This document shows positions 41,643-58,241 of a stretch of 64,000 bases of DNA, piece after piece. Under the pieces are notes generated by a model. It made no database searches. It had not been told where the DNA came from and saw only the letters and a list, made by a program, of their open reading frames with translations. Position numbers and translations under genes: made by a program. The stretch's first letter is position 1. Every line of letters starts with the position of its first letter. Source of the stretch: a virus; UHGV virus genome UHGV-0277313; one strand, written 5' to 3'.

Positions 41643-41682
41643 ATGCAAGATAATTATTTGTTCACATTATTCTTTAAAAGAC

Positions 41683-41711
41683 TTGACAAATTCTAAAACA
41701 TATGTTAAGTT
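41683..41711 (+). promoter_or_regulatory. Promoter-like element TTGACA-N17-TAAGTT, copy 2
   Basis: AAAGACTTGACAAATTCTAAAACATATGTTAAGTT. Shine-Dalgarno AAAGGAAAAGGTG follows before 41749. Confidence 0.45.
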
Positions 41712-41748
41712 CATAATATCATTTAAAGGAAAAGGTGTTGAATAAACT

Positions 41749-42249: not shown

Positions 42250-42253
42250 ACAA

Positions 42254-42276
42254 AAGGCCGAATAGAATCGGCCTTT
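42254..42276. terminator. Bidirectional terminator hairpin
   Basis: AAGGCCGA-atagaa-TCGGCCTT followed by TTTTCTT. Confidence 0.65.
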
Positions 42277-42279
42277 TTC

Positions 42280-42783
42280 TTATTCTGGAATAAAATAAAA
42301 CACATTTGCATCAGGGTTTGCAGGTAATGTTGACACAATTTGCATTTTGGAATTAAACCATTTATTAGTTAATATTTGGTTATCATTACTTCCATCAACT
42401 GGCGGCGTTGGTGCAGTAGCAAATGTTGAACCATCACTTCCACGAACACCAACAGCTAAATTGGCATAATGATCAGTCCCTTCAACATTATGATGTGCAG
42501 TTAATTGCATAACTGCATCTTTTGTTGGCGCACCACTATTCAGAAAAGACTCACAATAACCTGTATTTAAATCACCTTTTCTAAAAATTAATGATCCTGA
42601 CCATGTGTTTGAATCTGAAGCTTTTGATGCCATAATAACATCTGTACGTACAGTATCTGTTGACATATCGAATGTTTTCAAAGACTTGATTGTTTGAGGT
42701 TCATTAAGTGTTACAGCACTGTCTAAATCTGTTTTTAAATCTTTGACTGAATTGATTTCTAGTTTATGTGATGTAATCGGCAT
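42280..42783 (-). CDS. Tail-fibre-like protein (short)
   Basis: LNEPQTIKSLKTFD fibre repeat. NDNQILTNKWF resembles the IATTAW motif. Confidence 0.5.
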   Translation of the reverse strand: MPITSHKLEINSVKDLKTDLDSAVTLNEPQTIKSLKTFDMSTDTVRTDVIMASKASDSNTWSGSLIFRKGDLNTGYCESFLNSGAPTKDAVMQLTAHHNVEGTDHYANLAVGVRGSDGSTFATAPTPPVDGSNDNQILTNKWFNSKMQIVSTLPANPDANVFYFIPE

Positions 42784-42851
42784 GTGAATACCTTTCTAAA
42801 AGAACACTATAAAATAGAACATTTTAAACAGTTGTCACACAGAGTTAAAGT

Positions 42852-43349
42852 TCAAATTAAATTCAATACAGATTCACCTGCTTGACGGTACAGATCTTCA
42901 ACTTGATTGAAACAATCAGATATGTGTTCAAAATTTATAATTTGTTTCTTAATGATAGGTCTTGATGGTATAAGATTGTTATTAACAACTAAATCATTTT
43001 TAGCAAACGTAAATTCAAAATTCTTTTTTAAAATGATTAATGAAGTCTGATTTATTTCAATAGCAAAGAAACTTTCTTTAACTTGTTTGATCTTTATCAA
43101 CAAGCAATTGCCATTCCAACCTGAATTACATAAAAAAGTTTCAAGTTTATTTAGAAAACCATAAACATCATAAGTTTCTAAATCAGGTCCACTTCTTCTG
43201 TTAAGTAAAGTAGGAAAATTTTTATAAAGCTCAACAATTGAAAATAATACTAGAGGGTAATTCTTATATTTTTGTAAGAAGATTTTCTCATTTATTTCAA
43301 AAACTTTATGATTTCCTTCTGTACCTAAATTGTAAATATTTCCTTGCAT
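42852..43349 (-). CDS. Hypothetical protein
   Basis: 165-aa ORF. Confidence 0.5.
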   Translation of the reverse strand: MQGNIYNLGTEGNHKVFEINEKIFLQKYKNYPLVLFSIVELYKNFPTLLNRRSGPDLETYDVYGFLNKLETFLCNSGWNGNCLLIKIKQVKESFFAIEINQTSLIILKKNFEFTFAKNDLVVNNNLIPSRPIIKKQIINFEHISDCFNQVEDLYRQAGESVLNLI

Positions 43350-43354
43350 TTAGC

Positions 43355-43843
43355 TCAACACAAACAATTATTAATATCTTCAAAAGAAGTTGTAATTGGA
43401 ACTGTTAATTCTTTTCCATTATAATTAATTAGATAATTTTTAGAAAATGAATTATAAACAATATACAACTTTACACCTTTTTCTATTAAATAATTAGGAA
43501 TATCACTAACATATTCCACACGATTCGCACATTGAATTTGTTGAAAATCAGTCAACGTATAAGAGTATTCCGTATAAACAGGTTTTTTTGTTGGTATATA
43601 ATTGATAGTTCTTCTTTCTTGTTTTACACAAGCAGAGAACGAAACCAAATCACCCTTTTTGAACTTAACGTTATTATCAACAAGGTTACAGTTTACCTTC
43701 AATTTATCAAGCATTTTAATACCATCAAGCATTACGCCTTTTAACAACATATATTCACCATCATTGTAAATACTATATTCATGAAAAGTTGCAACATACT
43801 TCATACGGCGGTTTGAACCGATTGAACACAAATCTTTGAACAT
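43355..43843 (-). CDS. Hypothetical protein
   Basis: 162-aa ORF. Its stop lies 5 nt upstream of the start of 42852..43349. Confidence 0.5.
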   Translation of the reverse strand: MFKDLCSIGSNRRMKYVATFHEYSIYNDGEYMLLKGVMLDGIKMLDKLKVNCNLVDNNVKFKKGDLVSFSACVKQERRTINYIPTKKPVYTEYSYTLTDFQQIQCANRVEYVSDIPNYLIEKGVKLYIVYNSFSKNYLINYNGKELTVPITTSFEDINNCLC

Positions 43844-43983
43844 ACTTTTTCCTTTTTATTTTTATGTTAATCATATAAATTAAATTATCAGAATAAAGCA
43901 CAAAAGTCAATTTTAAATATTTTATGAATAAAGCTTTATTGTGTTCTTTTAATTGCTTGGAATATAACTTAACAGGTGATAAA

Positions 43984-44679
43984 ATGGCAACACACAAAAT
44001 CGATAGCAAACAAATTGATCCGGCAACTGTTGCAACAACAGGTTATGTATCGAACTCAATAGATGAATTCGCTGGTACAGTAAATGTATCTTCTATTATG
44101 CGTACATCCGGTGACCAAACTATTTCAGGCACCAAAAGTTTTAGTGGCAAGCTAAACTATACTGCCACTATTGACGCTGCTGCAAACGATCAGCAACCTG
44201 CCACAACAGCATGGTGTAATTCAGCAAGTAGTATTGTTCACAAGACTGGCGATGAAACAATCAACGGGAATAAAACATTTTCTGAAACAATTAACGGTAC
44301 AGCAATGTATGCTAATTGGGGTGACCTTGCTGAAATGTATAATACAGATTTTAATTATAAAGAAGGTACTTTAGTTCAATTTGGCGGTGAAAAAGAAATG
44401 ACACTTGCTATTTCTGAAGCAAATGGTGTAATATCTTCTCAACCCGGTTTATTGATCAATAACAACAAGGAAGACAACATGCAACCGATCGCTTTAATAG
44501 GTAAAGTTCCTGTTCGTGCTGTTGGTATTGTACATAAATTTGACAGAATCACATTGTCTGATATTCCTGGCGTTGCTAAAGTTGCTAAAGATGGTGATAA
44601 AGTTATTGGTGTAGCTTTAGAAAATAAATTAGATGATGATGAAAATTTGGTTTTGTGTTCAGTTAAACTAAAATTCTGA
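43984..44679 (+). CDS. Tail-fibre-like protein
   Basis: Shine-Dalgarno AGGTGA precedes ATG 43984. GDQTISGTKSFSG, NDQQPATTAWCN and GDETINGNKTFS motifs. Confidence 0.55.
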   Translation: MATHKIDSKQIDPATVATTGYVSNSIDEFAGTVNVSSIMRTSGDQTISGTKSFSGKLNYTATIDAAANDQQPATTAWCNSASSIVHKTGDETINGNKTFSETINGTAMYANWGDLAEMYNTDFNYKEGTLVQFGGEKEMTLAISEANGVISSQPGLLINNNKEDNMQPIALIGKVPVRAVGIVHKFDRITLSDIPGVAKVAKDGDKVIGVALENKLDDDENLVLCSVKLKF

Positions 44680-45089
44680 TGAAGAAACATCTATTAGATA
44701 AAAGAAATTTATCATATTTGATCAACGACTGGGATGATTTAAATCTTCCGTTTACTATAAACGATAATGATATTGCATCTCAAGTCGTTGATTTCTTTTG
44801 TAAACAATCTGAATTAGTATATCCGGCAAAATCATATTTTGTTGCTATCGTTTATGCAAAATGTCTTGAAAACTTCTTTCATGAAGATTTTTATGAATGT
44901 TTGTCTGATAAAGATCTATTACCTGATGATAAGTTTTTCAAAACATATATTGACTCTCAAGAAATTTATGATAAGATATTAACACAAATTAAAGACCCGT
45001 TAACATATAAATCTGTCGAAAAGACTGTAAGTTATTTTAAAAAGGAATTTCTTATTGGAACTAATAATCAAACCAACAGGCCGTTGTAA
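44679..45089 (+). CDS. Hypothetical protein
   Basis: ATGA overlap with the upstream stop. Confidence 0.45.
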   Translation: MKKHLLDKRNLSYLINDWDDLNLPFTINDNDIASQVVDFFCKQSELVYPAKSYFVAIVYAKCLENFFHEDFYECLSDKDLLPDDKFFKTYIDSQEIYDKILTQIKDPLTYKSVEKTVSYFKKEFLIGTNNQTNRPL

Positions 45090-46014
45090 CTTTAATTGCA
45101 AATTCTGTAGCGCTAATTTATTAAGCATTAAGCATCAAACAAAAGTACCAAATGAATTAATCAAAATAATTCAAACTATAAAGCCAAACAGTCTTATTTT
45201 TACAGGTGGGGATCCTTTATTAGTTGGCCCTGGATATTATTATGAAATTTTATCTTTAGGTAATTTTTCTATTTCATTAACAACAAACCTAAAAGATTAT
45301 TACATTCAATCAAAAAAATGGATTGATTTATTCAAAAATAAGCGTGTCGGAATTTGCACATCTTTTCAATACGGAAATGAACGCATGTGGAATTCTGAAC
45401 AGGTTTATAGTGAAGATGTATTTAAAAAAGTTATGAAAAGATTTAAAGAAGATGTTGGTTATACACCTTCGTTTATTTCAGTCATTTCTAAATCAAATGA
45501 GGATAAAGCATTAGATCATTTATATCTTGCAAAGGAGTTGAAAACTAAATGCAAGATTAACGGCGTCTTGCCGATCGGATTGTCAAAAGAATATTACCCT
45601 TTATATAAAATGATCGATATTTGGTTGCAAATAAAAGAAAATAATCTTGAAAAATATTGGGACAACAAAATTCAATTTCACAATGGCGGTTGCAATTTTA
45701 ATACAAACTTAATATGCTCAAGCACCATTCGCTCTTTCTGGCTTGATAACAACAATAACATACATTATAATAATTGCGAAGATTGTGCTGTACGTGGCTC
45801 TCGTATTCCTTTAGATACCAACATAGTTATCCCTAAAGAAGAAAATCTGAAGCCAGAACAATTGATTTCTCAAGACTGTTTATGTTGTGAACTATGCAGG
45901 CTATGCAATGCTTGTAAATCAACAAGACAATCAATTCTTGATAAACAGACTTTTTGTTCTGAAATGAAAAAACGGAAACAGAAGATATTGGATGCTAAAT
46001 GGAAAATCTATTAA
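45055..46014 (+). CDS. Radical SAM/SPASM-like enzyme (array B, 1)
   Basis: IKPTGRCNFNCKFC and FTGGDPLL motifs. C-terminal CLCCELCRLCNACKS. Confidence 0.65.
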   Translation: MELIIKPTGRCNFNCKFCSANLLSIKHQTKVPNELIKIIQTIKPNSLIFTGGDPLLVGPGYYYEILSLGNFSISLTTNLKDYYIQSKKWIDLFKNKRVGICTSFQYGNERMWNSEQVYSEDVFKKVMKRFKEDVGYTPSFISVISKSNEDKALDHLYLAKELKTKCKINGVLPIGLSKEYYPLYKMIDIWLQIKENNLEKYWDNKIQFHNGGCNFNTNLICSSTIRSFWLDNNNNIHYNNCEDCAVRGSRIPLDTNIVIPKEENLKPEQLISQDCLCCELCRLCNACKSTRQSILDKQTFCSEMKKRKQKILDAKWKIY

Positions 46015-46802
46015 CTGCACTGTATGTAATTCCGAATTATCAATGCAATCTGGCATGTCCACATTGTACATTGCACAATTATAATATAGAGTACGATGAA
46101 GAAACATTTATAGATACATTGGTTAAAACGAACGCCAAAAAATGCATTCTATTTGGTGGTGAGCCATTGTTGTATTTTGAAAGATTTAAACGTATTTTGG
46201 AAACTAAAAAGATTCACTCAATATCAACAAATCTTTTATTACTATCAAGAGAATCACTCAATTTAATTAAACATTACAATATTAGTATTGCAACTTCTTG
46301 GAATTTAAAAAGATTCACAAACGATCAATTAAATAAATGGTTTGACAATATTAAAAATGTACAATGTGATGTTTTAATAACAATGACAGACGATTTGATA
46401 ACTAAAAGCGGTACAGAAAAAATGTTTGAAATTTTAGAACATTTAGAAAATTTTGGTACTGTAAAAAATATTATTTTCGAACAAGTTGTCGATGATAGAA
46501 TGGATGAACAACATTATGAACAAGTTGACAACTGGTTGTGCAATATACATGATAATTGGCATTTTAAAATGAATAATGCTATCGAAGATAAACTAGATAA
46601 ATGCATTCTGGATTGTTCAAAAGTTAAAACACTTGAACCTAACGGTATCTTGCATAATGGTTGCCCACAATTTAAAACAGTTCATATTGTTAACAAATGT
46701 TTAAGTTGTGAATTAAATAAAATTTGTAAACCATGTATTTTACAAAAACATTGCACGTTTCCTACAAAACTTTACAACAAATTAAAGGTTATTTTAAAAT
46801 AA
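45999..46802 (+). CDS. Radical SAM/SPASM-like enzyme (array B, 2)
   Basis: CNLACPHC and LFGGEPLLY motifs. C-terminal CLSCELNKICKPCILQKHC. Confidence 0.65.
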   Translation: MENLLTALYVIPNYQCNLACPHCTLHNYNIEYDEETFIDTLVKTNAKKCILFGGEPLLYFERFKRILETKKIHSISTNLLLLSRESLNLIKHYNISIATSWNLKRFTNDQLNKWFDNIKNVQCDVLITMTDDLITKSGTEKMFEILEHLENFGTVKNIIFEQVVDDRMDEQHYEQVDNWLCNIHDNWHFKMNNAIEDKLDKCILDCSKVKTLEPNGILHNGCPQFKTVHIVNKCLSCELNKICKPCILQKHCTFPTKLYNKLKVILK

Positions 46803-46868
46803 GCCTTGATTTTTAAATTTTTATAATTTATAATAAATAAAAATAAAGAATTTTATAAGGTTTATAAA
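46788..46868 (+). repeat. Conserved 5' leader of the TnpB-like gene (begins TTATTTTAAAATAAGCCTTGA)
   Basis: Same length and ~70% identity to the revcomp of 37796..37875. Overlaps the 3' end of the rSAM gene. Confidence 0.45.
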
Positions 46869-48176
46869 TTGAAAACAATTAGTTTGCCATATACTTGTTC
46901 AGAAGACGACCGAAACTTCATCAAAGATGAAATTCGGAAATCGTCTAATATGGTAAGATTTGCTTTCAACAGATTCAAAGATTCTAAGTCTGAAAAAGAC
47001 ATTAGATTGCTTTCTAAAAGCTTATCAAATGTTCCTTCGGATTCTTGGTTTATTCAATGTGCAATCAAGAAAGCAAATTATCTGTTATTAACCAATAAAG
47101 AAAAAGTTATTTTCGGAGGAAAATTTTATTTTTATCAAAGATTAAAACATAAATTAGATAAAGACAGGTTTAAATCAAGTAGATTGCTTGGGATTTATTC
47201 TCAAGGTGAAACACCGAAAGGTGGAAATAGAAAATTCAAACTAGATATAGCGAACAATCTAATCATTTTCAAATTCTCAAGATATAAATACATCAATCTC
47301 CAGTTACCTAAACTTCGTAAGAATTATCTTTATGAACTAATCAACTTAGAAGAGCAATGTAATCAGAAGTTATCTAATTTTAGTGTTGAATTAAAATTAG
47401 ATAAAATCTGCATAACGTTTGATGATTCCAAAATCTATACAAGTAATTATAATGGAAAATCAAATATAGTCGGTGCTATTGATATGAATCCTAATTATAT
47501 TGGATTTTCTATTTCTAAATTTTCAAATGGAAAAAGGAAGATTTTGCTCGAAGAGCAATATGATTTGTCTTACTTTACAAGAAATCTTCATAAAGCAACA
47601 GATGATGCTAAAGGTAAGCACCAAAACAGCAAACAGATATTTGAGCTTAAAGAGATTGTGAAAGATATAATCAAGAAATGCAAATTTTTCCACGTTGGAA
47701 AATTTGGCATTGAAGATTTGAATTTCAAACAAACAAATTCAGGAAAAGGTAAATCATTCAATAGATTAACGAAGAATAAATGGAAAAGAGAGGCACTGGT
47801 TTCTGCATTGAAGAAACAATGCTTACTTAACAAAATAGACTTCATAGAAGTTAATCCAGCTTATTCTTCATTTATTGGGAACCTATGTAATAATGCACCA
47901 GACCCAATAGCAGCAAGTTTGGAAATTGCTCGTAGGGCAATGTTCAAGTATATCAAAGGTCAGCTCTATCCAGAACTTATAAAAGTTGAAAGCTTGTTCA
48001 ACCTATGGAAGGAATCAGCAAGCTGGGTTTATTCGAGCTGGAAAGAACTGTTTGATATAGTAAAAACATCTAAAGTGAAATATAGACGTTCTTTGGAATC
48101 TTTTGATTCTGAAGTTTTTAGACTCAAGTCATCTAAATCTATGGTAAATTTATATAAAATTTATAATTGTTTATAA
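46869..48176 (+). CDS. TnpB/Fanzor-like RuvC-fold nuclease lacking the zinc finger (paralog b)
   Basis: Same motifs as 36479..37792 (IVGAIDMNPNYIGF, FGIEDLNFK, EVNPAYSSFIGN, APDPIAASLEIARRA). TTG start. Inserted between rSAM genes. Confidence 0.6.
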   Translation: MKTISLPYTCSEDDRNFIKDEIRKSSNMVRFAFNRFKDSKSEKDIRLLSKSLSNVPSDSWFIQCAIKKANYLLLTNKEKVIFGGKFYFYQRLKHKLDKDRFKSSRLLGIYSQGETPKGGNRKFKLDIANNLIIFKFSRYKYINLQLPKLRKNYLYELINLEEQCNQKLSNFSVELKLDKICITFDDSKIYTSNYNGKSNIVGAIDMNPNYIGFSISKFSNGKRKILLEEQYDLSYFTRNLHKATDDAKGKHQNSKQIFELKEIVKDIIKKCKFFHVGKFGIEDLNFKQTNSGKGKSFNRLTKNKWKREALVSALKKQCLLNKIDFIEVNPAYSSFIGNLCNNAPDPIAASLEIARRAMFKYIKGQLYPELIKVESLFNLWKESASWVYSSWKELFDIVKTSKVKYRRSLESFDSEVFRLKSSKSMVNLYKIYNCL

Positions 48177-48195
48177 TAGTGAGTTATTTTAATAA

Positions 48196-49302
48196 ATGAA
48201 TCCTTTAGAGTTTTATAAAAATAGTGATTACTATGAAATTGCTTGCATGTTATTTGAACCTTGCAATTTAAAATGTAAATTTTGTTTTGAAGATCATAAA
48301 AACAAAACAATCGACACAGATTACATTGAGAATATTTATAAAATAATTGATGAAAAGTTTTCGATTGATTATGAAAAATACAAACATTCTTTAAAGACAC
48401 TTTATATAATGATGTGGGGTGGCGAGATTTTTTATGACGCACTACCTGATGAAGTTTTTAAATCATATTACAAATTTGTCGATAATATAAAAGATTTGTT
48501 TGATAAAAAATTTCCAAATGTTAAAGTTATCTTTTCATGGTTATCAAACGGTGTATTTACAAACTATAAACGTGTCGAAGATATTGTCAAATATTCAAAA
48601 GGAATTATTAACTTTAGTTATGATCCTGTTAACAGATTCTCAACACATAAACAAAAAGATTTAATGGTAAAGACCGCAACCTATTTTAAAAAAATTGGTT
48701 TAGCTGATAAAATATCAATTACATTAACAAAAGACTCTATTAAAGGTTTTATTGAAAATGATGATTCATTAAAATACTTTAACAATATTGGATTCTTAAT
48801 TGATGTAAATTACTATATCGCAAATGTCAACTGGCAATCACTATTAGCGACAGACAATGAAATATTTACATTTTTTAAATGGGCAATAGATAACAAATTG
48901 TATAGAATAAAAGTATTGGAAAAATGTTTTGATTCTATTACAGGAAAGCCTTCATCTTCATATTGTAACTGTTTATGGTGTTCACAAATTACACATGGTC
49001 AATGGAGTATTGATTGTGCTAAATGTAGTTCGGTATTGCCACCAGAATTGTTTTACGGTGAATATACGCCACAAATAACAGAAGAAAATTCAAATCAAAT
49101 TAAGGCATCTATTGGATTAGTTAAACGAGGTTGTTTAGCTTGTGAATATCACCACATTTGTCAACACCCTTGTTGGATTTCCATAGTGTTTAAAGGATTT
49201 AAACCTTCAGTTTGCTTTTATAAACAAACTTATGATTATATAAAATCAAATGATGTTATTATTAATGATTTTTTGAAATGGAAACACAATGAAACAAAAT
49301 AA
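48196..49302 (+). CDS. Radical SAM/SPASM-like enzyme (array B, 3)
   Basis: CNLKCKFC and MWGGEIFYD motifs. C-terminal CNCLWCSQ...CAKCSS...GCLACEYHHICQHPC. Confidence 0.65.
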   Translation: MNPLEFYKNSDYYEIACMLFEPCNLKCKFCFEDHKNKTIDTDYIENIYKIIDEKFSIDYEKYKHSLKTLYIMMWGGEIFYDALPDEVFKSYYKFVDNIKDLFDKKFPNVKVIFSWLSNGVFTNYKRVEDIVKYSKGIINFSYDPVNRFSTHKQKDLMVKTATYFKKIGLADKISITLTKDSIKGFIENDDSLKYFNNIGFLIDVNYYIANVNWQSLLATDNEIFTFFKWAIDNKLYRIKVLEKCFDSITGKPSSSYCNCLWCSQITHGQWSIDCAKCSSVLPPELFYGEYTPQITEENSNQIKASIGLVKRGCLACEYHHICQHPCWISIVFKGFKPSVCFYKQTYDYIKSNDVIINDFLKWKHNETK

Positions 49303-50365
49303 TTTAAACAGTTTCGGTTTTGATTGTCTACTATTTGAACGTTGCAATCTTCATTGCACTTTTTGTCTTGAAGAACATTCTGTAAATGATATTGACATTC
49401 AATGGATCAGACAACTTCCGTCATTGTTATTAGAAAGATTTGAAAAAGAATATGAAAAACATTCTGAAACAAATCTTATTACTTTTCGTATTTGGGGAGG
49501 CGAATTGTTTTTTGATGCCATACCAAACGAATTATTTGAAGAATATAAGATGTTTGTTGAACAAACAAAACGTTTATTTAATAAAACTTTTCCTGAAATT
49601 AAATTAGATTTTGCATGGGTTTCAAATGGTGTATTTAAAAATATCGAACGTGTTATTAATTTATTAAAAGAAACTAATAGTGGAATTAATTTGAGTTACG
49701 ATCCTATAGGAAGGTTTCATAAAAAAGAATTAGAAGATTTAATGATTGAAAACGCTTTACACTTTCATTCATTGGGATTGTTGAATGAAATTTCAATCAC
49801 ATTAACTAAACATTGTATCAATGCATACGTAAACGATAAATCTCGACTTTTGGATTTAAAGTTCGCTAAAAAGATTGATATTAATTACTATATACCAAAC
49901 ATTAACTGGAAAACTTTACTTCCTTCTGACGACGATCTTTTCAACTTTTTTAAATGGGCAATCAATAATAAACTGTTTCAAATTATTGATCTGAATAGCT
50001 TGTTGTTAACACTGACTGGAAAAATGTCTAAATGTGTTAAAGGTTGCAACTGCCATAAACATTTATCAGCGTGTAAAAATTGTATTACATATAACTGTGT
50101 TAAAAGCTCAACAATATTTCCAAATGCAGATTTTTATGGTGATACAGTTATTACTGAAGACAACGTATCTGAAATTAAAAAATATAAAGGCATGTGCAAG
50201 CGAGGTTGCTTCTATTGTAAATATATAGATAAATGCCCCGGATGTTGCTGGACATCTATTATCTATAAAAATGCTACACTAGACGATTGCCCGTTCAAAA
50301 AAATTATAGAATATGTCGAACAAAATTCAAATATAAAAAATGAATTCATGCAATGGAAACTTTAA
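49289..50365 (+). CDS. Radical SAM/SPASM-like enzyme (array B, 4)
   Basis: CNLHCTFC and IWGGELFFD motifs. C-terminal CNCHKHLSACKNC...GCFYCKYIDKCPGCC. Confidence 0.65.
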   Translation: MKQNNLNSFGFDCLLFERCNLHCTFCLEEHSVNDIDIQWIRQLPSLLLERFEKEYEKHSETNLITFRIWGGELFFDAIPNELFEEYKMFVEQTKRLFNKTFPEIKLDFAWVSNGVFKNIERVINLLKETNSGINLSYDPIGRFHKKELEDLMIENALHFHSLGLLNEISITLTKHCINAYVNDKSRLLDLKFAKKIDINYYIPNINWKTLLPSDDDLFNFFKWAINNKLFQIIDLNSLLLTLTGKMSKCVKGCNCHKHLSACKNCITYNCVKSSTIFPNADFYGDTVITEDNVSEIKKYKGMCKRGCFYCKYIDKCPGCCWTSIIYKNATLDDCPFKKIIEYVEQNSNIKNEFMQWKL

Positions 50366-51252
50366 ACAATTTATCAATACAACCATCCTTTAAATGCAAT
50401 TGGAATTGTCAATTTTGTTATTTAGGTAATTTAAAAGCTGATACAACACTTTTAAATCTTAAAGTGTTAAAAGATAACCTATATGAAATTAAACAATTTT
50501 ACAAAATTAATCATGTACAAGTATTAGGTGGTGAGCCAAGCTTGCTTAATTGCTATTATTTGGAAGAGTTACAAGGATTAATTAAAGATTACCATGTTAC
50601 ATATGTCACTAATCTTTCAAACATGGAATTCGTAAATTTTTGCTTACAGCACAATGTGCAAATGACAATATCTGTCAATAAAGAAAGACAACACTTTGCA
50701 GAAACAGTAAAGAATTTAAAATTAATTAAAGGCTTGAAGAATATTCAGTTAAGCAGTGTCGTCTTACCTTCATTATTAAATGACGACATTAAAAATATTT
50801 TACAATTCTATAATTCTTTTGGGTTTGATGTATATTTCTTGAAGTATAATGCTTCAAAAACAAACAAACTTAATTACAACATAACAAATGAAGAGTACTA
50901 TAAATTTATTGATGAATTAATCAAACAATATCAGGTTGGGTGCTATAAATTTAAAATCAAAAATATTGATTTCTTGTTGCAAGACAATATTAATGCTATC
51001 AGTTGTGACTCGTTATTTATAAACCCTAATGGTAAATTTTCAACGATTACATATAATGACAACAACGAAGAGTATTTTGTTGAATTTGACACTGTTGAAC
51101 AATTTAATAAATTTTGTAACAGCACTAATGTAAAACAAAAAGATACGTGTAAACAATGCCTTTGTTATAAACAATGTGGTTCAAAAAATATTTATAGTTC
51201 GGATCAAAATAAATGCATGAATCTTTTTAAAATAAGAAATGAATTGCTATGA
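50353..51252 (+). CDS. Radical SAM/SPASM-like enzyme (array B, 5)
   Basis: CNWNCQFC and VLGGEPSLL motifs. C-terminal CKQCLCYKQCGS. Confidence 0.65.
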   Translation: METLNNLSIQPSFKCNWNCQFCYLGNLKADTTLLNLKVLKDNLYEIKQFYKINHVQVLGGEPSLLNCYYLEELQGLIKDYHVTYVTNLSNMEFVNFCLQHNVQMTISVNKERQHFAETVKNLKLIKGLKNIQLSSVVLPSLLNDDIKNILQFYNSFGFDVYFLKYNASKTNKLNYNITNEEYYKFIDELIKQYQVGCYKFKIKNIDFLLQDNINAISCDSLFINPNGKFSTITYNDNNEEYFVEFDTVEQFNKFCNSTNVKQKDTCKQCLCYKQCGSKNIYSSDQNKCMNLFKIRNELL

Positions 51253-52178
51253 AAAATTTAACACTATCAATAATGCCTTCATATAAATGCAATTTCAAGT
51301 GTCAATATTGTTATTTGGGTAATTTAATAAAAAATGACAACCTTTTAAATTTAGAAAATCTTGAGCATTCATTACTAGAATTAAAACAACTATATAACAT
51401 TAAAAATGTTAGTCTGTATGGTGGCGAACTATCATTACTTGATAACGTTTATTTACAACGTTTAGTGGATTTAATAAAAGTTAAATTACCTAAATCAAGT
51501 ATATCTTTAACAAGTAATTTTAGTAATGAAAATATATTAACTTTTTGTTTGCTTAATAATATCAAACTAAACGTTTCATTAAATGAAGAAAGATACCAAT
51601 ACTCAAAAACATTACAACAAATAAAGAAATATACAGGAACAAAGCTTTTTGATCTAACTGCTGTCGTATTACCATCTATTATAAACAAACATACAAATGA
51701 ACTTTATAAATTTTATAATGATTTAGGATTTGATGTTTTCTTTATTCAACATCATAATTCAATTCATCAAAAATCATATTCCATTTCACTAGATCAATTC
51801 TCAAAATTTTTATACGATTTCATTTGTTATCATTCAATGCAATCTGATGCTAAATTTAAAATCGAAAATTTAAATGTATTAAATGATACAGAGTTCAACC
51901 CAAACACAGAAAGCTATTTATTTATAAATCCAAACGGAAAATACTGTACAACTGTTTTTAAAGATAATATCGAACATTATGTAACATTCGACAACTTACA
52001 ACAATGGCAAACCTTTTGTGAAAAAAGCTATCAAATGTATGAAAATTCTTGTTCGACTTGTAAATTCTTTAACAGATGTAAAGCTGAACACCTTGAAACA
52101 TTAAACAATGATAATGAATGTTCCGGGTTAAAACACCTATTGACATCATTACAGAATCGTTCTATTATTAATTGGTGA
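51249..52178 (+). CDS. Radical SAM/SPASM-like enzyme (array B, 6)
   Basis: CNFKCQYC and LYGGELSLL motifs. C-terminal CSTCKFFNRCKAE. Confidence 0.65.
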   Translation: MKNLTLSIMPSYKCNFKCQYCYLGNLIKNDNLLNLENLEHSLLELKQLYNIKNVSLYGGELSLLDNVYLQRLVDLIKVKLPKSSISLTSNFSNENILTFCLLNNIKLNVSLNEERYQYSKTLQQIKKYTGTKLFDLTAVVLPSIINKHTNELYKFYNDLGFDVFFIQHHNSIHQKSYSISLDQFSKFLYDFICYHSMQSDAKFKIENLNVLNDTEFNPNTESYLFINPNGKYCTTVFKDNIEHYVTFDNLQQWQTFCEKSYQMYENSCSTCKFFNRCKAEHLETLNNDNECSGLKHLLTSLQNRSIINW

Positions 52179-52190
52179 GTCGTACGACGG
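52178..52190 (+). promoter_or_regulatory. Palindrome-box core AGTCGTACGACGG immediately upstream of 52200
   Basis: Same GTCGTACGAC palindrome as the fibre/Gly-rich promoters, but only 10 nt from the ATG. Confidence 0.3.
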
Positions 52191-52199
52191 ATTTTAAAT

Positions 52200-52826
52200 A
52201 TGGTAAATTCAAATACAAGAATTCAAAAAATTACAGCAAACTCAATTGTTGGTTTTATTTCACAATTTAATTCAACAGTTGTTGATCCTGCATACAATAC
52301 AGCAACGTATCATTCTGGTAACAAACCACATTTTTCAAAAACGGCTAACGGGTTAACAACACCACAATCAATACCTGATAATCAATTGTTAGGTACTGAA
52401 CGTACGTACTTGTCATCAAACGATACTAGAATAAATGCTGCTTCTTTATGTGCTGCATTATTAAGCATTACACAATCTTTAAGTAAGATTAGGAAGTTTC
52501 AATCACAATGGTATTTCAATACAAATGGTACACAAGCTTTAGTTGATAGTATGTCTGGAACAGGTATATTAACATTCCCTGACATTCCTGCTGGTACAAA
52601 AGAAGCCTCATGGACACGCGAAGGAAATACGAATATACAACTGTCGCCGCAAATGCTTTTTTCTGCAGGAAAGAAAATGATGGCTTCTGATGCGAATCAA
52701 ACAATTGTCAATTGTTTAAATGCTTGGGCTACTCAATGCCGTGATAATAATGAAATCATATACAAATTCTTTCAATGTTATTCAGATTGTCATGTAAATT
52801 GTTATGATTCACGAGGAAGAAGATGA
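52200..52826 (+). CDS. Hypothetical protein (possibly structural)
   Basis: 208-aa ORF preceded by the palindrome box. Confidence 0.5.
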   Translation: MVNSNTRIQKITANSIVGFISQFNSTVVDPAYNTATYHSGNKPHFSKTANGLTTPQSIPDNQLLGTERTYLSSNDTRINAASLCAALLSITQSLSKIRKFQSQWYFNTNGTQALVDSMSGTGILTFPDIPAGTKEASWTREGNTNIQLSPQMLFSAGKKMMASDANQTIVNCLNAWATQCRDNNEIIYKFFQCYSDCHVNCYDSRGRR

Positions 52827-53539
52827 TTAAAACTGGTTTGCCTTATGATTTTGAAACAATGCAACAAATAATGCAAGAAGGTGCAATTGTTGATGTAACT
52901 AATATCAGCTATCCATCTATTCCAAAGGAAGATAACGTAAAAACAAGTTTGATCTATTTAAGAAATACAAACTTTGATAATGTTCATTTGGATTTTCAGA
53001 AAGCTGATTATAATTTAAAATCAGAATTCTTAGATTGCTATTTTTCTGGCGGAAGCTTTCCTTGCAAACTTAAAGAATTGTCTGATACAATATTGCATGC
53101 AATATTTAAAATCCTAAATATCAATAATGAATTAGAAACCATATTAACCGAACAAGAAGAAACTTTATATATAAATTCACATAAAGAACAATTAAATGAA
53201 TTAATTCAGCTCTCAATATCTTTACCGTTATTTTTGATCAATCGTTTAGATAATATTGATTTTGAAATATCTTTTGACGATTTAGAAAAATCAAATGACG
53301 AAACTTGTAAAGATATCATTAATTTGATTATTGATTCGCCTGAATTTTGTCTTTTATATTCTAAAGATTTAGGAATGCAACCTAAATTTTATGAAAAGCT
53401 TTTTACATTAGATAACAATATTTTATTTGAGAATATCTGTAATCATACACCTTTTCAAACTTTGATGTTTGGAATCGCAGACGAACAAAATTGGAACGCA
53501 TTCGTAAATTCGATAAAGGAAGTAATAAATGTTTTATAA
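52823..53539 (+). CDS. Hypothetical protein
   Basis: ATGA overlap with the upstream stop. Confidence 0.5.
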   Translation: MIKTGLPYDFETMQQIMQEGAIVDVTNISYPSIPKEDNVKTSLIYLRNTNFDNVHLDFQKADYNLKSEFLDCYFSGGSFPCKLKELSDTILHAIFKILNINNELETILTEQEETLYINSHKEQLNELIQLSISLPLFLINRLDNIDFEISFDDLEKSNDETCKDIINLIIDSPEFCLLYSKDLGMQPKFYEKLFTLDNNILFENICNHTPFQTLMFGIADEQNWNAFVNSIKEVINVL

Positions 53540-54311
53540 TAATATTAATGTAAAAACAACTGATATTTGTCAACTTCTTCCTTTATGTATTAAAAAGACT
53601 GCAAATATTAATAAAAATTTTATTGGTGAAATACATATAGATGATGTTCAATCTATATATAAAACAACTAACAAAAGCATTACCTCAAAAGAGGAAGCTG
53701 AAAGAATCATTAATTCTACAAAAGCTATTAAATATTTTCAAGATTTTAAAACTTTGTTGCTCAATAATGAATTGGATTTATTCTTTGACAATTATTCAGG
53801 TGAAGACATTCTAGGTACATATTACTTATATCAAAATTCACAGTTCGAAAATTTTGCTTCATTGTTAAGTTCGGATTCTATTGTTTATTCAACTATAGAG
53901 AATACATATCATAAAAATACGCAGGTATTAGATGTAAACATACCTGTTGATTTATTTGATAACATTTTGATCCAATATGATGCACTATCTTATGATGCTG
54001 AAAACAATTTTATTAACGATTACTTTTCGCATGATGAAATTATTAATATGCTAAATGATACTGTTAATAAAGGATTAAAAACAGCATTACAAATGTTTTT
54101 GCAAAACGACGGCAGTTTGTTACCTTCTAATAATAAATGTGAACTACAAGCTTTATTATTAATGATGCTAAAAGTTCCATCAATACCTGTTAAATTATCA
54201 ATCCTTGATAACAGCAGGTACAATAGCACAAGAAATATTTTTAGACCGCACAAACAAATTAATAAACAAAAAATTCAAGAACTGATACAACCAAACTTTA
54301 TTTTGCCATGA
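53529..54311 (+). CDS. Hypothetical protein
   Basis: 260-aa ORF. Confidence 0.5.
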   Translation: MFYNNINVKTTDICQLLPLCIKKTANINKNFIGEIHIDDVQSIYKTTNKSITSKEEAERIINSTKAIKYFQDFKTLLLNNELDLFFDNYSGEDILGTYYLYQNSQFENFASLLSSDSIVYSTIENTYHKNTQVLDVNIPVDLFDNILIQYDALSYDAENNFINDYFSHDEIINMLNDTVNKGLKTALQMFLQNDGSLLPSNNKCELQALLLMMLKVPSIPVKLSILDNSRYNSTRNIFRPHKQINKQKIQELIQPNFILP

Positions 54312-55285
54312 ATGAATTAATAATCTATTTGAAACTTACTAACCGTTGTCAATTGCGTTGCCAACACTGTTATAATGCTGTTTCAAAATTTAATGACGAC
54401 TTATCTGTTGATACTTTAAAACAGGCAATTTCTTTTATCAATAACAAAACACTGACAAATAATGTAACATTAATATTACACGGCGGTGAACCTCTATATG
54501 GCGGAATACAAAAATCCAAATATGTCATTGATAATGTTGATAAAAAAGTCAATCTTTATATAACAACAAATTTAATGTACGATATTAATGAAGAGACGTT
54601 AAATTTCTTCAAACAATTCAAATTAATTTCAACATCATGGGATTACAAAATTCGTTTTCAAAATAAGCAACAATTAAAACTTTGGGAAGATAATGCTAAA
54701 AAACTAATAGAATCAAACATTAGTATTCAACCTATAATTTCGATCAATAAATATTTAATAAACGAATTAAAACCAGACACTTTGTTTGTTTATTTTAAAC
54801 AATTTGATATATCAAAATTAAATTTTGAACGGATTACAGAAACTGGTAATGCAGCTAAATTTAATGTCAAAGCAAATAATAGTGATATTGATAGATGGTT
54901 ATATGATGCATATATAGAAAATATCAATAAGTTTAATTTTACAATTCCATTGTTTGAAAGTTGTGAAGAAGCTGTCTTTCATAATAATTTGATAGGGTGC
55001 AGAAAACGGCAATGTCAAAAGAAAATAATTACAATCAATACAGATGGAACGATATGTGGTTGTCCAAACAGTTATCAATTTACATATGGTGATGTTTATG
55101 GAAGAACAAATGTTGATGTCTACAACTCTTTAATTACAAAAGAATTAATCAGGAATAACAATTGTTACATTTGCCCATACTTTAAATATTGTAACGGAGA
55201 TTGTTGCCAACTCAATTGGGATGAAACAGGTTGTCCTGGAATGCCGTCAATATTTAACTATTTGATAAATAAAGCCGGGAATTAA
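54308..55285 (+). CDS. Radical SAM/SPASM-like enzyme (array B, 7)
   Basis: NRCQLRCQHC and LHGGEPLYGG motifs. C-terminal GCRKRQC...CGCPNS...CYICPYFKYCNGDCC. Confidence 0.65.
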   Translation: MNELIIYLKLTNRCQLRCQHCYNAVSKFNDDLSVDTLKQAISFINNKTLTNNVTLILHGGEPLYGGIQKSKYVIDNVDKKVNLYITTNLMYDINEETLNFFKQFKLISTSWDYKIRFQNKQQLKLWEDNAKKLIESNISIQPIISINKYLINELKPDTLFVYFKQFDISKLNFERITETGNAAKFNVKANNSDIDRWLYDAYIENINKFNFTIPLFESCEEAVFHNNLIGCRKRQCQKKIITINTDGTICGCPNSYQFTYGDVYGRTNVDVYNSLITKELIRNNNCYICPYFKYCNGDCCQLNWDETGCPGMPSIFNYLINKAGN

Positions 55286-55292
55286 TCCCGGC
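55274..55292. terminator. Bidirectional terminator hairpin
   Basis: GCCGGGA-atta-ATCCCGGC, then CTTCCTTTT. Confidence 0.6.
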
Positions 55293-55299
55293 CTTCCTT

Positions 55300-55539
55300 T
55301 TAAATATCTTTCCGTTCAAAAACTTCATTAATGAATTCTTTATCATCAAACACTTTTGAAAGCTCTACAATTAGTGTCAACAACTGATCTTTTCTGAATG
55401 AATCATTGCTTGAATTTTTTAAAGACATTGTTAGAGCCATCATAGCATTTTTTGCGCCATCTATAAACGACTGTTTCTGTAAGTGTTCAACACCTTCGGC
55501 TAATTCCTTTTTCAAATCTTTCTTTTCTTTTTTGTTCAT
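55300..55539 (-). CDS. Hypothetical protein
   Basis: Shine-Dalgarno GAGGTG precedes the ATG at 55539; the track ORF extends to 55605. Confidence 0.45.
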   Translation of the reverse strand: MNKKEKKDLKKELAEGVEHLQKQSFIDGAKNAMMALTMSLKNSSNDSFRKDQLLTLIVELSKVFDDKEFINEVFERKDI

Positions 55540-55550
55540 GTAACACCTCA

Positions 55551-55847
55551 TTAATAAATATAAATGCAACCATTTGCCTTGTAATCGTCCTGAAGACACC
55601 ACCAATCTTCTACAGACAATTTTACACCTTGCTTTTTAAAGTAATGATACAATTCATCAATGACGTCTTTAGGCATGTCTAAATCAACTGGAATACCCCT
55701 GGAATCAACTTTGAACATATCAATCTTTTTATCAAGATCTTTCAACTTTGAAGATATCTCATCTTCTAAAACTGATGGATTAAAAACAGAGATCATGGCA
55801 ATTCCAACCATTGACAAACTATCAGATACCGCTTTAAAAATATTCAT
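55551..55847 (-). CDS. Hypothetical protein
   Basis: 98-aa ORF. Confidence 0.45.
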   Translation of the reverse strand: MNIFKAVSDSLSMVGIAMISVFNPSVLEDEISSKLKDLDKKIDMFKVDSRGIPVDLDMPKDVIDELYHYFKKQGVKLSVEDWWCLQDDYKANGCIYIY

Positions 55848-55911
55848 TACTATTTTCTCCTACAACAAAAACAATATAGCAAAACGCAAATAGTTTGTCA
55901 AGGAAAAAGAA

Positions 55912-55945
55912 AACAGTCTAGTAAAAGAATTACTAGACTGTCTCT
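55912..55945 (-). terminator. Hairpin (10-bp perfect stem), probable terminator for the minus-strand tdk operon
   Basis: CAGTCTAGTA-aaagaat-TACTAGACTG. T-run on the minus strand after the stem. Confidence 0.45.
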
Positions 55946-56323
55946 TTGGTATCAACCTCTTTTGTATCAACAGGCTGCTTCAGGAGTTGCACCTGAACCT
56001 TGCGCCAACAAGGTGTTCTCCAACAACCACAGATGCAGTAACTTTAAATGTCAATTCGTTTAGTTTACTAAACAATTGAATATTGCTCAACCACTTTTTT
56101 CACGTTAACCTATATCTTCACAGGCATTGACTAAAGTTACTGCATCCAAAAATGAAAGGATGGTTGAGTTTTAGCAAACTTAAAGGCAAAACAAACAAGG
56201 GAGACATCGACCTTATCTGTTTTTGTAACCTAAACAATGTGAAGTCATTGTCAGTGAAACAGAAAACTGTAGGTTACCTTCACCAATTATTAGAATAGTA
56301 AATATCCTTCAAAATGTCAATAA

Positions 56324-56902
56324 TTATTTTTTCTTTTTCACACTTTTCTTTTTTGAAGAATTAGAAGCTTTAGGTGTGTTCACTTTTTGAACAACTGGTG
56401 CTTCTATATGTACTTCTTCAGGTTCACTGTCTGACTCTTCAACAATTTCTGCTTCTGTATTTTCTACATCATCAACGTCAGAAGATTCATCGATTGATAT
56501 AGAAACTTCCCCTGTTGTATCTTCAAAATCTTCTTCACATTCAGTTCCACAAGAAGCTTCTTTTTCTAATGCTTCTAGATGTTCCTGCTGTGCCATTTCA
56601 GATAGTTTATCCATAGCTTTCTGATGACTATCTTCTAAAGTCATTTTACGCTTAAATTCTTCACAAGTAACACCTTCAATATCAATTTTAACGGTACACT
56701 CTTCAGAAATAAATTTATCCAATTCTGCACGAATTTGTGTCGGTGTTTTTTCACAACCTTCAGGCAACAACTCTTTTGTAATTTTACGTAAATTACGGTA
56801 AACATATTCTTCAGAAAAAGTTCCACCATTCGGATATAGTTTCAAAACTATTGCCGCAGCTTCATTCGACAATTGACGACCATTAATAAAAACTCTATTC
56901 AT
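56324..56902 (-). CDS. Hypothetical protein with acidic C-terminal half
   Basis: Shine-Dalgarno GGAG precedes the ATG at 56902. Co-directional with and immediately downstream of tdk. Confidence 0.5.
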   Translation of the reverse strand: MNRVFINGRQLSNEAAAIVLKLYPNGGTFSEEYVYRNLRKITKELLPEGCEKTPTQIRAELDKFISEECTVKIDIEGVTCEEFKRKMTLEDSHQKAMDKLSEMAQQEHLEALEKEASCGTECEEDFEDTTGEVSISIDESSDVDDVENTEAEIVEESDSEPEEVHIEAPVVQKVNTPKASNSSKKKSVKKKK

Positions 56903-56916
56903 TTTACATTCTCCAT

Positions 56917-57540
56917 TCACTTCTTATAAACTTCATTTGCACCAATGATTCCTTGCTCTCGTAAGTGTTTTTTAAAACAACGACGACAACAGGATTCATA
57001 TTTCACATCTTTACTTTCACAACCTGCGTTGCCAGCAAGATATTTACCACCTGACACCCTAATATGGTGCGTTGCACGACGACCACAATCACAAATACCA
57101 ATTGTTTCTTCTAGTTCATCAGCGATAGCCAATAATGCGGAACTTCCTTCAAACAGATCGCCTTCGGCAGTTGTTTTCAATCCATAACACATCACTGGAA
57201 TATTTAAGTCATCAACAACATCACTTAAATAATAAATATCTTCTTTCTTACAAAATTGTGATTCATCAACGAATATGATATCGAGATTTTCAACATCAAC
57301 AAATTTAGGAAGATCTTTAAAATTACCTGAATCCAAAAATAGACATTCTGGCCCTTCTGGAATAGGCCGTGAACATGTTGAACCAAACTGACCGTGTCCA
57401 AATGCCCCATTTCTTGTATCTGTTGTTGGTTTAATAATTAAAGTCTTTTTACCTTTTTCTTTATATGAATGATTTTTACAAATCAACAAAGAACTCTTGC
57501 TGGAACCCATTGTTCCGTAGATAAAAAATAATTTAGCCAC
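56917..57540 (-). CDS. tdk: Thymidine kinase
   Basis: P-loop YGTMGSSKSSLL, IIFVDESQF, and C-terminal zinc ribbon CDCG...CRRC. Confidence 0.9.
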   Translation of the reverse strand: MAKLFFIYGTMGSSKSSLLICKNHSYKEKGKKTLIIKPTTDTRNGAFGHGQFGSTCSRPIPEGPECLFLDSGNFKDLPKFVDVENLDIIFVDESQFCKKEDIYYLSDVVDDLNIPVMCYGLKTTAEGDLFEGSSALLAIADELEETIGICDCGRRATHHIRVSGGKYLAGNAGCESKDVKYESCCRRCFKKHLREQGIIGANEVYKK

Positions 57541-57596
57541 AATTTAGCCTTTCTGGAGTGTTTGTTTAGATAAAATCAGAACTATTGAAACATCAG

Positions 57597-58241
57597 TCAA
57601 TTTTTTAAAATGACATCCAAAACTAACTGCTGATATTCCTCTAATGTACCGTTATTATACAATGTAAAATCTTCTAAACATAAACCTGCCAAAGATCTTT
57701 CAGATGCATGAACATTCTTTAATGTTTCAGGTAAATCAACTTCTTCACCTTTACTTTTAGCCACATTATACTTTTGTGCATCAATGTACCACGCTGGCAA
57801 TCCCCCTCTTTTAACCCTATAAACGATACCACCCAAATCATGAATCATTTTAACTTCATTAGGAAAGCGAACATCTGTAATTAAATAGGTACCATCATAG
57901 TCAGAGTTTGATAATCTATGTTTAACTACATATACCCAAAAAGCATTGTCGATAGTATTTCTAAAACATTCTGTCCCGATTAATTGCAAAGCAAGTCGAG
58001 GTGTAAACTCTTTTCCTAAAGCTTCAGACCAGAATTCATCTTTCGCTTCTCTAAACTGTCTTGATTCAACAGTATCTCCTTGAAGCAATTTCCTACCCCA
58101 GCCAAAAGACACAGATGCAACATCCTTAACTGCATCCCCAAAAGAAATTTTTCTAAATTTACAACTATTTTTTATTAAAGTATCAGCTGCAGTATCTTTT
58201 CCCGAACCTGCAAGTCCAGAAAAACCTATAATTTTAGTCAT
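57597..58241 (-). CDS. P-loop nucleotide kinase, T4 gp1-like deoxynucleoside monophosphate kinase
   Basis: N-terminal MTKIIGFSGLAGSGKDTAADTL resembles the dNMP kinase N-terminus. Confidence 0.6.
   Translation of the reverse strand: MTKIIGFSGLAGSGKDTAADTLIKNSCKFRKISFGDAVKDVASVSFGWGRKLLQGDTVESRQFREAKDEFWSEALGKEFTPRLALQLIGTECFRNTIDNAFWVYVVKHRLSNSDYDGTYLITDVRFPNEVKMIHDLGGIVYRVKRGGLPAWYIDAQKYNVAKSKGEEVDLPETLKNVHASERSLAGLCLEDFTLYNNGTLEEYQQLVLDVILKN

Follow-up and report, generated by a model that had tools for sequence, protein, structure and literature searches.

The DNA that we analyzed, called the window here, is a stretch of 64,000 nucleotides (nt) of the virus genome UHGV-0277313, and the subject of this work is a group of genes for radical S-adenosylmethionine (SAM) enzymes within it, together with the genes that accompany them and a TnpB-like gene that lies among them. 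These genes occupy positions 44679-55285 of the window and form one co-directional, tightly packed block on the + strand of a jumbo phage of ~313 kb. Apart from an inserted element, neighboring genes in the block overlap by 4 to 35 nt, with one gap only, of 21 nt, and the block ends at a terminator-like GC-rich hairpin (55274-55292, + strand) downstream of which the genes lie on the other strand. Comparison of this 10-kb region with the INPHARED phages by megablast gave no match, and its relatives were reached by protein-level searches. By these comparisons, the block encodes a conserved, uncharacterized jumbo-phage module that is shared with Agrobacterium phage Atu_ph07, RSL2-like Ralstonia phages and many uncultured large phages.

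Seven open reading frames (ORFs) of the block, all of them on the + strand, encode the radical SAM proteins, and an ORF listing finds them at the coordinates that an earlier note on this DNA had given; we call them B1 to B7. B1 (45055-46014) has a CxxxCxxC motif at residue 11, a GGD at residue 51, a Pfam Radical_SAM match with E 4e-13 and a full SPASM-type Cys set (C-terminal C221, C241, C275, C278, C284, C287 and C301, kept in 10/10 homologues). B2 (45999-46802) is a radical SAM/SPASM protein with CxxxCxxC at residue 16 and at least seven conserved C-terminal Cys, whose best NCBIfam match is PapB (E 5e-9, far under the cut-off). On the other side of the TnpB-like gene lie B3 (48196-49302), with CxxxCxxC at residue 23 and six conserved C-terminal Cys (C259, C313, C316, C322, C326 and C340, kept in 10/10 homologues), and its tandem duplicate B4 (49289-50365; 40% identity), followed by B5 (50353-51252), with CxxxCxxC at residue 15 and a reduced auxiliary-cluster motif CX2CX5C...C in which C266, C269, C275 and C288 are the only conserved C-terminal Cys, and its tandem duplicate B6 (51249-52178; 37% identity). 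B7 (54308-55285) is a canonical seven-Cys SPASM protein with invariant C14, C18 and C21 near its N-terminus and invariant C236, C252, C286, C289, C295, C299 and C309 in its C-terminal part. It belongs to the most widely conserved subfamily and shares 28-32% identity with one gene each in Atu_ph07, Phosso, RSL2, RSF1, FLC6/8, S13 and pPa_SNUABM_DT01.

The assignment of these proteins as radical SAM enzymes holds up on alignment. CxxxCxxC, the motif that binds the SAM-cleaving [4Fe-4S] cluster, begins between residues 11 and 23 in all seven and is invariant in every subfamily alignment; a GGE or GGD, the glycine-rich motif of SAM binding, is found at residues 51-75 in the alignments of B1, B2, B3, B5 and B7, and a GGE can be read from the translations of B4 (WGGELFF) and B6 (YGGELSL). 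The Pfam Radical_SAM model (PF04055) matches all seven with E values of 4e-13 to 2e-3, the gathering score being reached by B1, B2, B5 and B6, with B3, B4 and B7 (19-26 bits) below it, and each of the seven also has a match to PHROG 1802 ('radical SAM domain-containing protein'), at E values of 2e-12 to 2e-38. When the four genes of a second group at 20218-23943 (array A, described below) are taken in, 11 of the 89 called ORFs of the window have CxxxCxxC within their first 60 residues, where residue shuffling (2000 trials) gives 0.09 such ORFs on average and 2 at most. The count of 11 radical SAM-type genes in 64 kb proposed in the earlier note is therefore correct. The accompanying statement that this count is far beyond what is usual in phages was too strong: three to five radical SAM genes are normal for the module in other jumbo phages, and thus the count in the window is less exceptional than had been stated.

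The seven genes had been described as one array of paralogues. We find instead five subfamilies, B1, B2, B3/4, B5/6 and B7; the only close pairs among the seven are the two tandem pairs B3/B4 and B5/B6. Four of the subfamilies have one-to-one orthologues in Atu_ph07 (gp165 for B1, gp168 for B3/4, gp164 for B5/6 and gp171 for B7) and two in RSL2 (ORF072 for B3/4 and ORF067 for B7). The same families are present in the uncultured phage loci L046-L058, with three to five radical SAM genes in each; B1 has orthologues in L048-L058, and B5 in L048, L049, L054, L056 and L058.

The description of these proteins as AnSME-like SPASM enzymes (AnSME being the anaerobic sulfatase-maturating enzyme) stands in part: their C-termini are of the SPASM type and they have no N-terminal RiPP recognition element (RRE; RiPPs are peptides made by the ribosome and then modified post-translationally), but B5 and B6 are not full SPASM proteins and membership in AnSME is not supported. 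We defined SPASM by the seven-Cys motif CX9-15GX4C ... CX2CX5CX3C ... C, which accounts for two auxiliary clusters. B1, B2 and B7 carry this motif, and B3/B4 hold six conserved C-terminal Cys that include CX2CX5CX3C. In B5/B6 only CX2CX5C and one distal Cys are conserved (7/7 homologues), and because only these four C-terminal Cys are conserved we do not assign them a full SPASM domain; such a C-terminus fits a single auxiliary cluster, which may be twitch-like or reduced. No PqqD-like match was obtained among the neighbors that were scanned, and the early position of the CxxxCxxC motif in the enzymes leaves no room for an N-terminal RRE.

Comparison with characterized enzyme families points to relatives that modify peptides or proteins. 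A search of the PDB with the single sequence of B7 returned nothing, but a profile of the B7 family matches 8VPO (E 8e-11) and the AnSME structures 4K36/4K37 (E 2e-10) over its full length, aligning to residues 13-334 of AnSME, with weaker and partial matches to ChlB, CteB, MoaA, YydG and SuiB. The enzyme in 8VPO is a radical SAM (RS)-SPASM enzyme of the cyclopropylglycine-synthase type (PMC10878394). None of the proteins reaches a curated NCBIfam cut-off; the best matches, to DynA, PapB, TIGR04083, AnSME and AmcB, score 32-52 bits against cut-offs of 300-650, and B7 scores 40.5 bits against the cut-off of 349.45 of the AnSME model TIGR03942. The equivalog models of RiPP maturases (PapB, DynA, DarE, CteB etc.) likewise take in none of the proteins. 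Viperin-like, MoaA-like, QueE-like and NrdG-like roles were considered and rejected, as the matches to these models, whose cut-offs lie at 131-325, are N-terminal only and score 17-33 bits.

A hallmark gene of the module had gone unnoticed in the earlier note. Directly downstream of B6, at 52200-52826 (+ strand), lies a gene for a 208-amino acid (aa) protein that ends in CYSDCHVNCYDSRGRR and that we call the CH-repeat tail protein. In its family the C-terminal 16 residues are near-invariant and read C-H-x-S-C-H-x-S-C-H-x-S-R-x-R-R-COOH; the homologues that lie beside a B7-type gene in Atu_ph07 (gp170) and RSL2 (ORF068) end in ...CHSSCHASCHNSRSRR and ...CHSSCHTSCHGSRGRR, respectively. In the protein of the window two of the three His are replaced by Tyr, with all Cys, all Ser and the RGRR end kept (CxxxCxxxC-SRGRR). 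Outside the C-terminal motif the proteins are ~20-25% identical. A homologue search with the single sequence found four close relatives only. With a profile the number rose to 258 clusters (90% identity), and exhaustive searching with HMMER brought it to 821 representatives of the family (50% identity), of which 485 have E <= 1e-10; all 821 are unnamed and without a Pfam domain. Of 143 further representatives that the exhaustive search returned, 136 carry three C[HY]xx repeats, no more and no fewer. In those that end in RR (n=137), every repeat keeps its C and its H in 131-132 sequences, and Arg stands at -4, -2 and -1 in every one (137/137). Two variants of this protein (L052:7974-8591 and L051:7644-8525) were seen in modules that, like that of the window, are oxygenase-free: one has four CHxx repeats before GSRSRR, and the other has four repeats and ends in ...CHSNNGCYK, with no RxRR end.

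The CH-repeat tail protein has no match in Pfam, NCBIfam, PHROGs or the PDB, and its AlphaFold2 (AF2) model, with a predicted local distance difference test score (pLDDT) of 67, contains a predicted folded domain that matches no solved fold. Its gene is directly followed by that of a conserved partner of 238 aa (52823-53539, + strand), and one family of ~240 aa follows the tail gene in all loci (hhalign probability 97.9%). The AF2 model of the partner is confident (pLDDT 86.8); it has no fold match among solved structures and matches only uncharacterized orthologues in BFVD, from Atu_ph07, RSF1 and uncultured phages, and the sequence finds nothing in Pfam, NCBIfam or PHROGs.

When viral contigs were scanned with the motif as guide and the encoding contigs were looked up, the tail protein was found in every module locus examined, including L046-L058, and in each of these loci (about 13 that are distinct) its gene lies within 8 kb of two to five radical SAM genes; in most of them it directly follows a B7-type gene. 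Among 185,579 species genomes the family occurs in four contigs, all from bins of metagenome-assembled genomes (MAGs), and it is thus essentially phage-restricted. The module adjoins tail and baseplate genes (Phage-Gp8, T4-gp15, a virion structural protein and, in the window, the BppL_N fibre-like gene at 43924-44679). The clusters of radical SAM, cupin and 2-oxoglutarate (2OG) oxygenase genes in the jumbo phages RSL2, RSF1, FLC6, S13 and Atu_ph07 represent the same module, with orthologues of B1, B3/4, B5/6, B7, the tail protein and the partner, the last two being annotated as 'hypothetical' in those records. The genome papers of FLC6 and S13 list genes for radical SAM proteins, Fe-S oxidoreductases, cupins and 2OG-Fe(II) oxygenases with no function assigned to them (PMC8066314, PMC11898562). 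Other loci add JmjC/cupin proteins, 2OG-Fe(II) oxygenases, a GNAT protein and a methyltransferase, and dihydrofolate reductase (DHFR) genes lie within the RSL2-type module. One variant of the module (L057:13515-15245) has a 576-aa B12-binding radical SAM enzyme beside the tail protein and the partner, which suggests methylation as an extra step in some lineages.

The window differs from those clusters in having the B2 subfamily, two tandem duplications and an inserted insertion sequence (IS) element, and in having no detectable cupin or 2OG oxygenase: hidden Markov models of the cupins and oxygenases of the module found nothing convincing in the 64 kb. The variant that contains radical SAM enzymes only, including subfamily B2, is found in the window, in a sister phage and in the loci L051 and L052. 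The GC content of ~30% and the fact that nearly identical contigs were binned with MAGs of Erysipelotrichaceae and Melainabacteria would fit an anaerobic gut host without oxygenase chemistry. In place of 'array', a fitter description is that of an oxygenase-free and lineage-expanded form of a jumbo-phage modification module that is conserved but unstudied.

The fibre-like and Gly/Cys-rich structural proteins interleaved with the enzymes had been put forward as candidate substrates. The ORF at 52200-52826, with its conserved CxxxCxxxC-SRGRR C-terminus, is a better candidate. We infer that the CH-repeat tail protein is probably the substrate of the radical SAM enzymes because its co-occurrence with their genes is strict, because a hyper-conserved C-terminal core on a divergent body resembles the precursors of RiPPs and cofactors, because the typical targets of SPASM enzymes are peptides or proteins that contain Cys and because the other enzymes of the module belong to protein-modifying families. 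The explanation that we favor for the whole block, and that we consider reasonably probable, is that of a multi-enzyme modification module that acts on the CH-repeat tail, with the TnpB-like gene as a passenger.

Under this explanation the module would consist of small (267-368 aa), RRE-less radical SAM enzymes of five subfamilies, the tail protein and the partner. Each enzyme would reductively cleave SAM and take a hydrogen atom from the tail's Cys/His/Ser repeat, and the outcome could be thioether-type cross-links or the oxidation of Cys or Ser, as with SPASM maturases of peptides and proteins, other chemistry being possible as well. The partner might serve as a scaffold or chaperone. In the phages of aerobic hosts the cupin/JmjC proteins and 2OG-Fe(II) oxygenases would supply further steps, and an anaerobic variant, such as the low-GC phage studied here, would swap the oxygenases, none of which was detected in the window, for extra radical SAM enzymes. 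A more specific proposal, which we offer tentatively and believe somewhat less than we doubt it, is that jumbo phages of widely different hosts have in common a dedicated pathway of four to seven radical SAM enzymes, which would turn the C-terminal (C-H-x-S)3-R-x-R-R of the phage-specific ~200-aa protein into a new cross-linked or oxidized structure. The product would be either a protein modified in a RiPP-like way or a cofactor derived from a peptide, and it would act in the virion or during infection.

Known systems offer partial likenesses to such a module. AnSME (PDB 4K36-4K39; TIGR03942) is, like B7, a small radical SAM enzyme with a seven-Cys SPASM domain and no RRE, and it acts on a protein instead of a short leader-bearing peptide, as is proposed for the enzymes of the module. 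The last repeat of the tail protein, C-H-[GS]-S-R, loosely recalls the sulfatase motif C-x-[PA]-x-R; no sulfatase was identified nearby, though no specific search for one was made. Against the single enzyme of AnSME, the module has five enzyme subfamilies. The RS-SPASM maturases of RiPPs (PapB/ranthipeptides, CteB/SCIFF, DynA/DarE, 8VPO and QhpD) combine radical SAM and SPASM domains, as in the module, and their targets are Cys-rich, repeat-containing and located at the extreme C-terminus of a linked gene product, as in the tail protein, the candidate target here. Unlike in those systems, the 'precursor' here is a protein of ~200 aa with a predicted folded domain, and the module is phage-encoded, has four to seven radical SAM genes and lies among tail and baseplate genes.

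Several observations weigh against modification of the tail as we propose it. The link between the enzymes and the tail protein is drawn from synteny and a pattern of conservation, and the structural models of the two accompanying proteins, the tail protein and its partner, resemble no solved fold and so lend no independent support to the roles suggested for them. In the window, L051 and L052 the tail gene and the B7-type gene are not neighbors. The position of the catalytic Asp277 of AnSME is a Pro in B7, within an invariant C-P-N; the chemistry can therefore not be read from AnSME, and B7 is not filed as an AnSME. The absence of oxygenases applies to the 64-kb window, and for the TnpB-like gene no guide (omega) RNA was found by Rfam or by folding (z-score -1.1). 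Finally, the abundance of Cys and His in the tail would also suit the binding of a metal or an Fe-S cluster, with no modification taking place. The tail protein would then be an accessory factor, its repeat acting as a dedicated electron donor, cluster donor or scaffold, and the real substrates would be virion proteins such as fibres and baseplate, or other molecules. With its three Cys and, as a rule, three His set at a fixed spacing, the tail offers a plausible ligand set, the module adjoins tail and baseplate genes, and radical SAM enzymes require a reductant; however, the protein of the window has lost two of the three His to Tyr and has kept every Cys and Ser and the RGRR end, and an invariant extreme C-terminus that includes R-x-R-R-COOH is more typical of a recognized core peptide. 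To our knowledge, CHxSCHxSCHxS is not a known Fe-S binding motif. For these reasons we regard an accessory role of the tail as unlikely.

The enzymes could also act on a small molecule or nucleic acid, in DNA hypermodification or in making a cofactor or a product like an antiviral nucleotide, with the tail gene merely a neighboring structural gene. Radical SAM enzymes of phages are known to take part in thymidine hypermodification (PMC8989533). The weak N-terminal matches to the MoaA, viperin, QueE and NrdG models, a QueC-like gene (3329-4186) and the DHFR genes of the RSL2-type module all lean in this direction, but the matches to those four models cover only the SAM-binding N-terminus that such enzymes share, the full-length matches are to SPASM enzymes that modify peptides or proteins (PapB, DynA, TIGR04083, AnSME and 8VPO), and there would be no account of why the tail protein and the partner so strictly accompany the enzymes. 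Such an activity seems improbable to us, and modification of the CH-repeat tail remains the reading that we prefer.

The other part of the favored explanation concerns the TnpB-like gene (46869-48176, + strand), which encodes a RuvC nuclease-type protein of 435 aa and lies between B2 and B3. It matches TIGR01766 with E 5e-7 (30.1 bits against a cut-off of 32), and in 16 sequences two residues of its RuvC triad, D205 (IDMNPNYIG) and D345 (PDxxAASxEIxRR), are invariant and the third, E282, is nearly so. The label 'zinc-finger-less' is correct because the segment between RuvC-II and RuvC-III is without Cys pairs in any family member. A profile of the family matched no solved TnpB or Cas12 among PDB sequences. 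Two traits, the missing zinc finger and the viral origin, are shared with RIIIr-4, a known virus-enriched TnpB clade (PMC10691335).

The earlier note left open whether this gene marks a mobile insertion or a functional link to the radical SAM genes; the first stands and the second does not. Related phages were searched, as had been suggested, for an uninterrupted junction, and B2 abuts B3 both in the sister phage IMGVR_UViG_3300013426_000013 (313 kb; loci L042/L045), which is 80-85% identical across 41676-58667 of the window, and in an independent assembly (L059, a MAG contig). In all three loci position 46790 of the window joins 48188 directly, and the empty site of the sister phage reads AAAGGTT followed, across the junction, by TAAGAAATG. 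The inserted element accordingly spans 46791-48187 (+ strand; 1397 bp, boundaries +/-3 nt), with the left end TTATTTTAAAATAAGYCTTGA... and the right end ...GAGYTATTTTAA, and we assign it to the IS607 family as an element that lacks tnpA. The reported overlap of a conserved leader with the 3' end of B2 is real, as the conserved upstream sequence begins at 46791, 12 nt before the stop codon of B2. In the sister phage B2 has 264 aa and ends in ...KLKV, with B3 beginning 3 nt later; in the window it has 267 aa and ends in ...KLKVILK, the last three codons (Ile-Leu-Lys) and a new stop codon being supplied by the insert. No terminal inverted repeats and no unambiguous target duplication were seen at the element ends compared, and IS607 elements are described as lacking terminal inverted repeats and a clear target duplication (PMC6188088).

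Copies and relatives of the element agree with its mobility. A second tnpA-less IS607-type copy is found at 36469-37869 (- strand; 83% nt identity to 46792-48192), whose TnpB-like gene (36479-37792, - strand; 83% aa identity) lies 9 kb away in an unrelated context; a search for the empty site of this copy with the protein of 34466-35731 as query found no relative. Many phage contigs, of 180-390 kb, carry more than one copy of the family. In one relative (L002) the start of the gene is overlapped by an ORF of 200 aa with helix-turn-helix (HTH)/MerR and Resolvase domains, that is, a serine-recombinase tnpA, and homologous tnpA ORFs directly precede the TnpB-like gene in L015, L021, L025, L031 and L034, making six relatives in all. 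A TnpB-like RuvC protein preceded by a serine recombinase with MerR-type HTH and resolvase domains is the arrangement of the IS607 family; unlike typical elements of that family, which have tnpA, the copies in the window are without it, and none was found in the window. The element shares its leader of 77 nt with the second copy and L001, with tnpA in its place in L002; as a candidate regulatory link to B2 this leader was rejected, since it is no more than where the tnpA-less element has its left end. Across the block, matches to a sigma-70-like promoter were no commoner than in shuffled sequences (78 vs 78.7), and we therefore claim no promoter for the leader. The 3' 180 nt of the element are somewhat more conserved (0.73-0.80 vs about 0.64), with a weak fold z-score of -1.1.

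From the empty site, the copies and the tnpA-linked relatives we conclude that the TnpB-like gene is a passenger IS607-type element and no part of the radical SAM system. The element inserted recently at the stop codon of B2, after divergence from the sister phage, and the operon is otherwise intact. A functional link, with the protein as an RNA-guided regulator or a domesticated component of the group, could be argued from its co-orientation with the enzymes and its place in an intergenic junction where it breaks no gene, and nuclease-dead relatives of TnpB (TldR) are known to act as regulators in phages. The RuvC triad is intact here, however, a diverged copy lies on the other strand, the family is multicopy and linked to the tnpA of IS607, and the gene is not a constant feature of the B2/B3 junction: the sister phage is without the insert, and no other module locus carries it. 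We judge such a link highly improbable.

Further TnpB-related observations were made in the window and its sister phage. A different TnpB-like gene of the sister phage (L018:9919-11376; 448 aa, 32% identical) sits exactly between the orthologues of the window genes at 23936-24874 and 24874-25833; in the window an intact TAATG stop/start overlap at 24872-24881 marks this site as unoccupied, which gives a second filled/empty pair with the polarity reversed. Canonical TnpB genes with Pfam OrfB_IS605 and Cas12f1-like TNB zinc-ribbon domains (PHROG 506) are present at 1186-2268 and 8347-9540 (both + strand), with no tnpA beside them. The window thus holds four TnpB-type genes in 64 kb.

The remaining genes of the block and its surroundings are as follows. 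A 136-aa ORF of unknown function (44679-45089, + strand), which overlaps the start of B1, is possibly part of the module; it has no Pfam or NCBIfam match and a homologue, 44% identical, beside the module in L051. A 260-aa ORF (53529-54311, + strand), also of unknown function, lies between the partner gene and B7; it found nothing in Pfam, NCBIfam or PHROGs and has no detectable relationship to the ~370-aa gene at the same position in other loci. Just upstream of the block, the fibre-like protein of 43924-44679 (+ strand) has BppL_N repeats and a C-terminus like a Peptidase_G2 intramolecular chaperone, and it shares 41% identity with the C-terminal part of Atu_ph07 gp176, a protein that is likewise encoded just upstream of the module. 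A homologue of a GcrA-like cell-cycle regulator is encoded at 41749-42249 (+ strand; Pfam E 3e-32), and the match of 3329-4186 (+ strand) to a QueC-like PHROG is weak and covers about 46 residues.

The four radical SAM proteins of array A (20218-23943, + strand) are distant relatives of subfamily B3/4, and three of them end in C..CGHS...Y.D.(D/E)(D/E)C..CD instead of the SPASM motif, the exception being the product of 21078-22034. A gene 1.2 kb upstream of this array (18331-18996, + strand; L018:3378-4034) encodes a protein of 221 aa with a Ser/Cys-rich tail, ...NYACSSSSSSSSSSCSCSSSSSCCSSSSSYIVYMMI, that does not differ at all in the sister phage, although the overall nt identity is ~82%; this protein may be the substrate of array A. 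Three paralogues of ~315 aa (2367-3326, 23936-24874 and 24874-25833, all + strand) are 36-43% identical and have no family match, and two of them directly follow array A.

Much new peptide chemistry has come from radical SAM/SPASM enzymes, yet as far as our searches show, phage-encoded pathways of this kind are undescribed. What had been listed as 'radical SAM domain proteins' of jumbo phages is now a defined system with a candidate substrate family, a partner and five enzyme subfamilies, and cultured carriers of it exist (Atu_ph07, RSL2/RSF1, FLC6/S13 and pPa_SNUABM_DT01). The insertion at the B2 stop codon provides a clean natural case of a filled and an empty site for a zinc-finger-less IS607-type element in a phage genome. 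If the tail protein is indeed modified, the module would represent a new class of post-translational modification and a new side of jumbo-phage biology.

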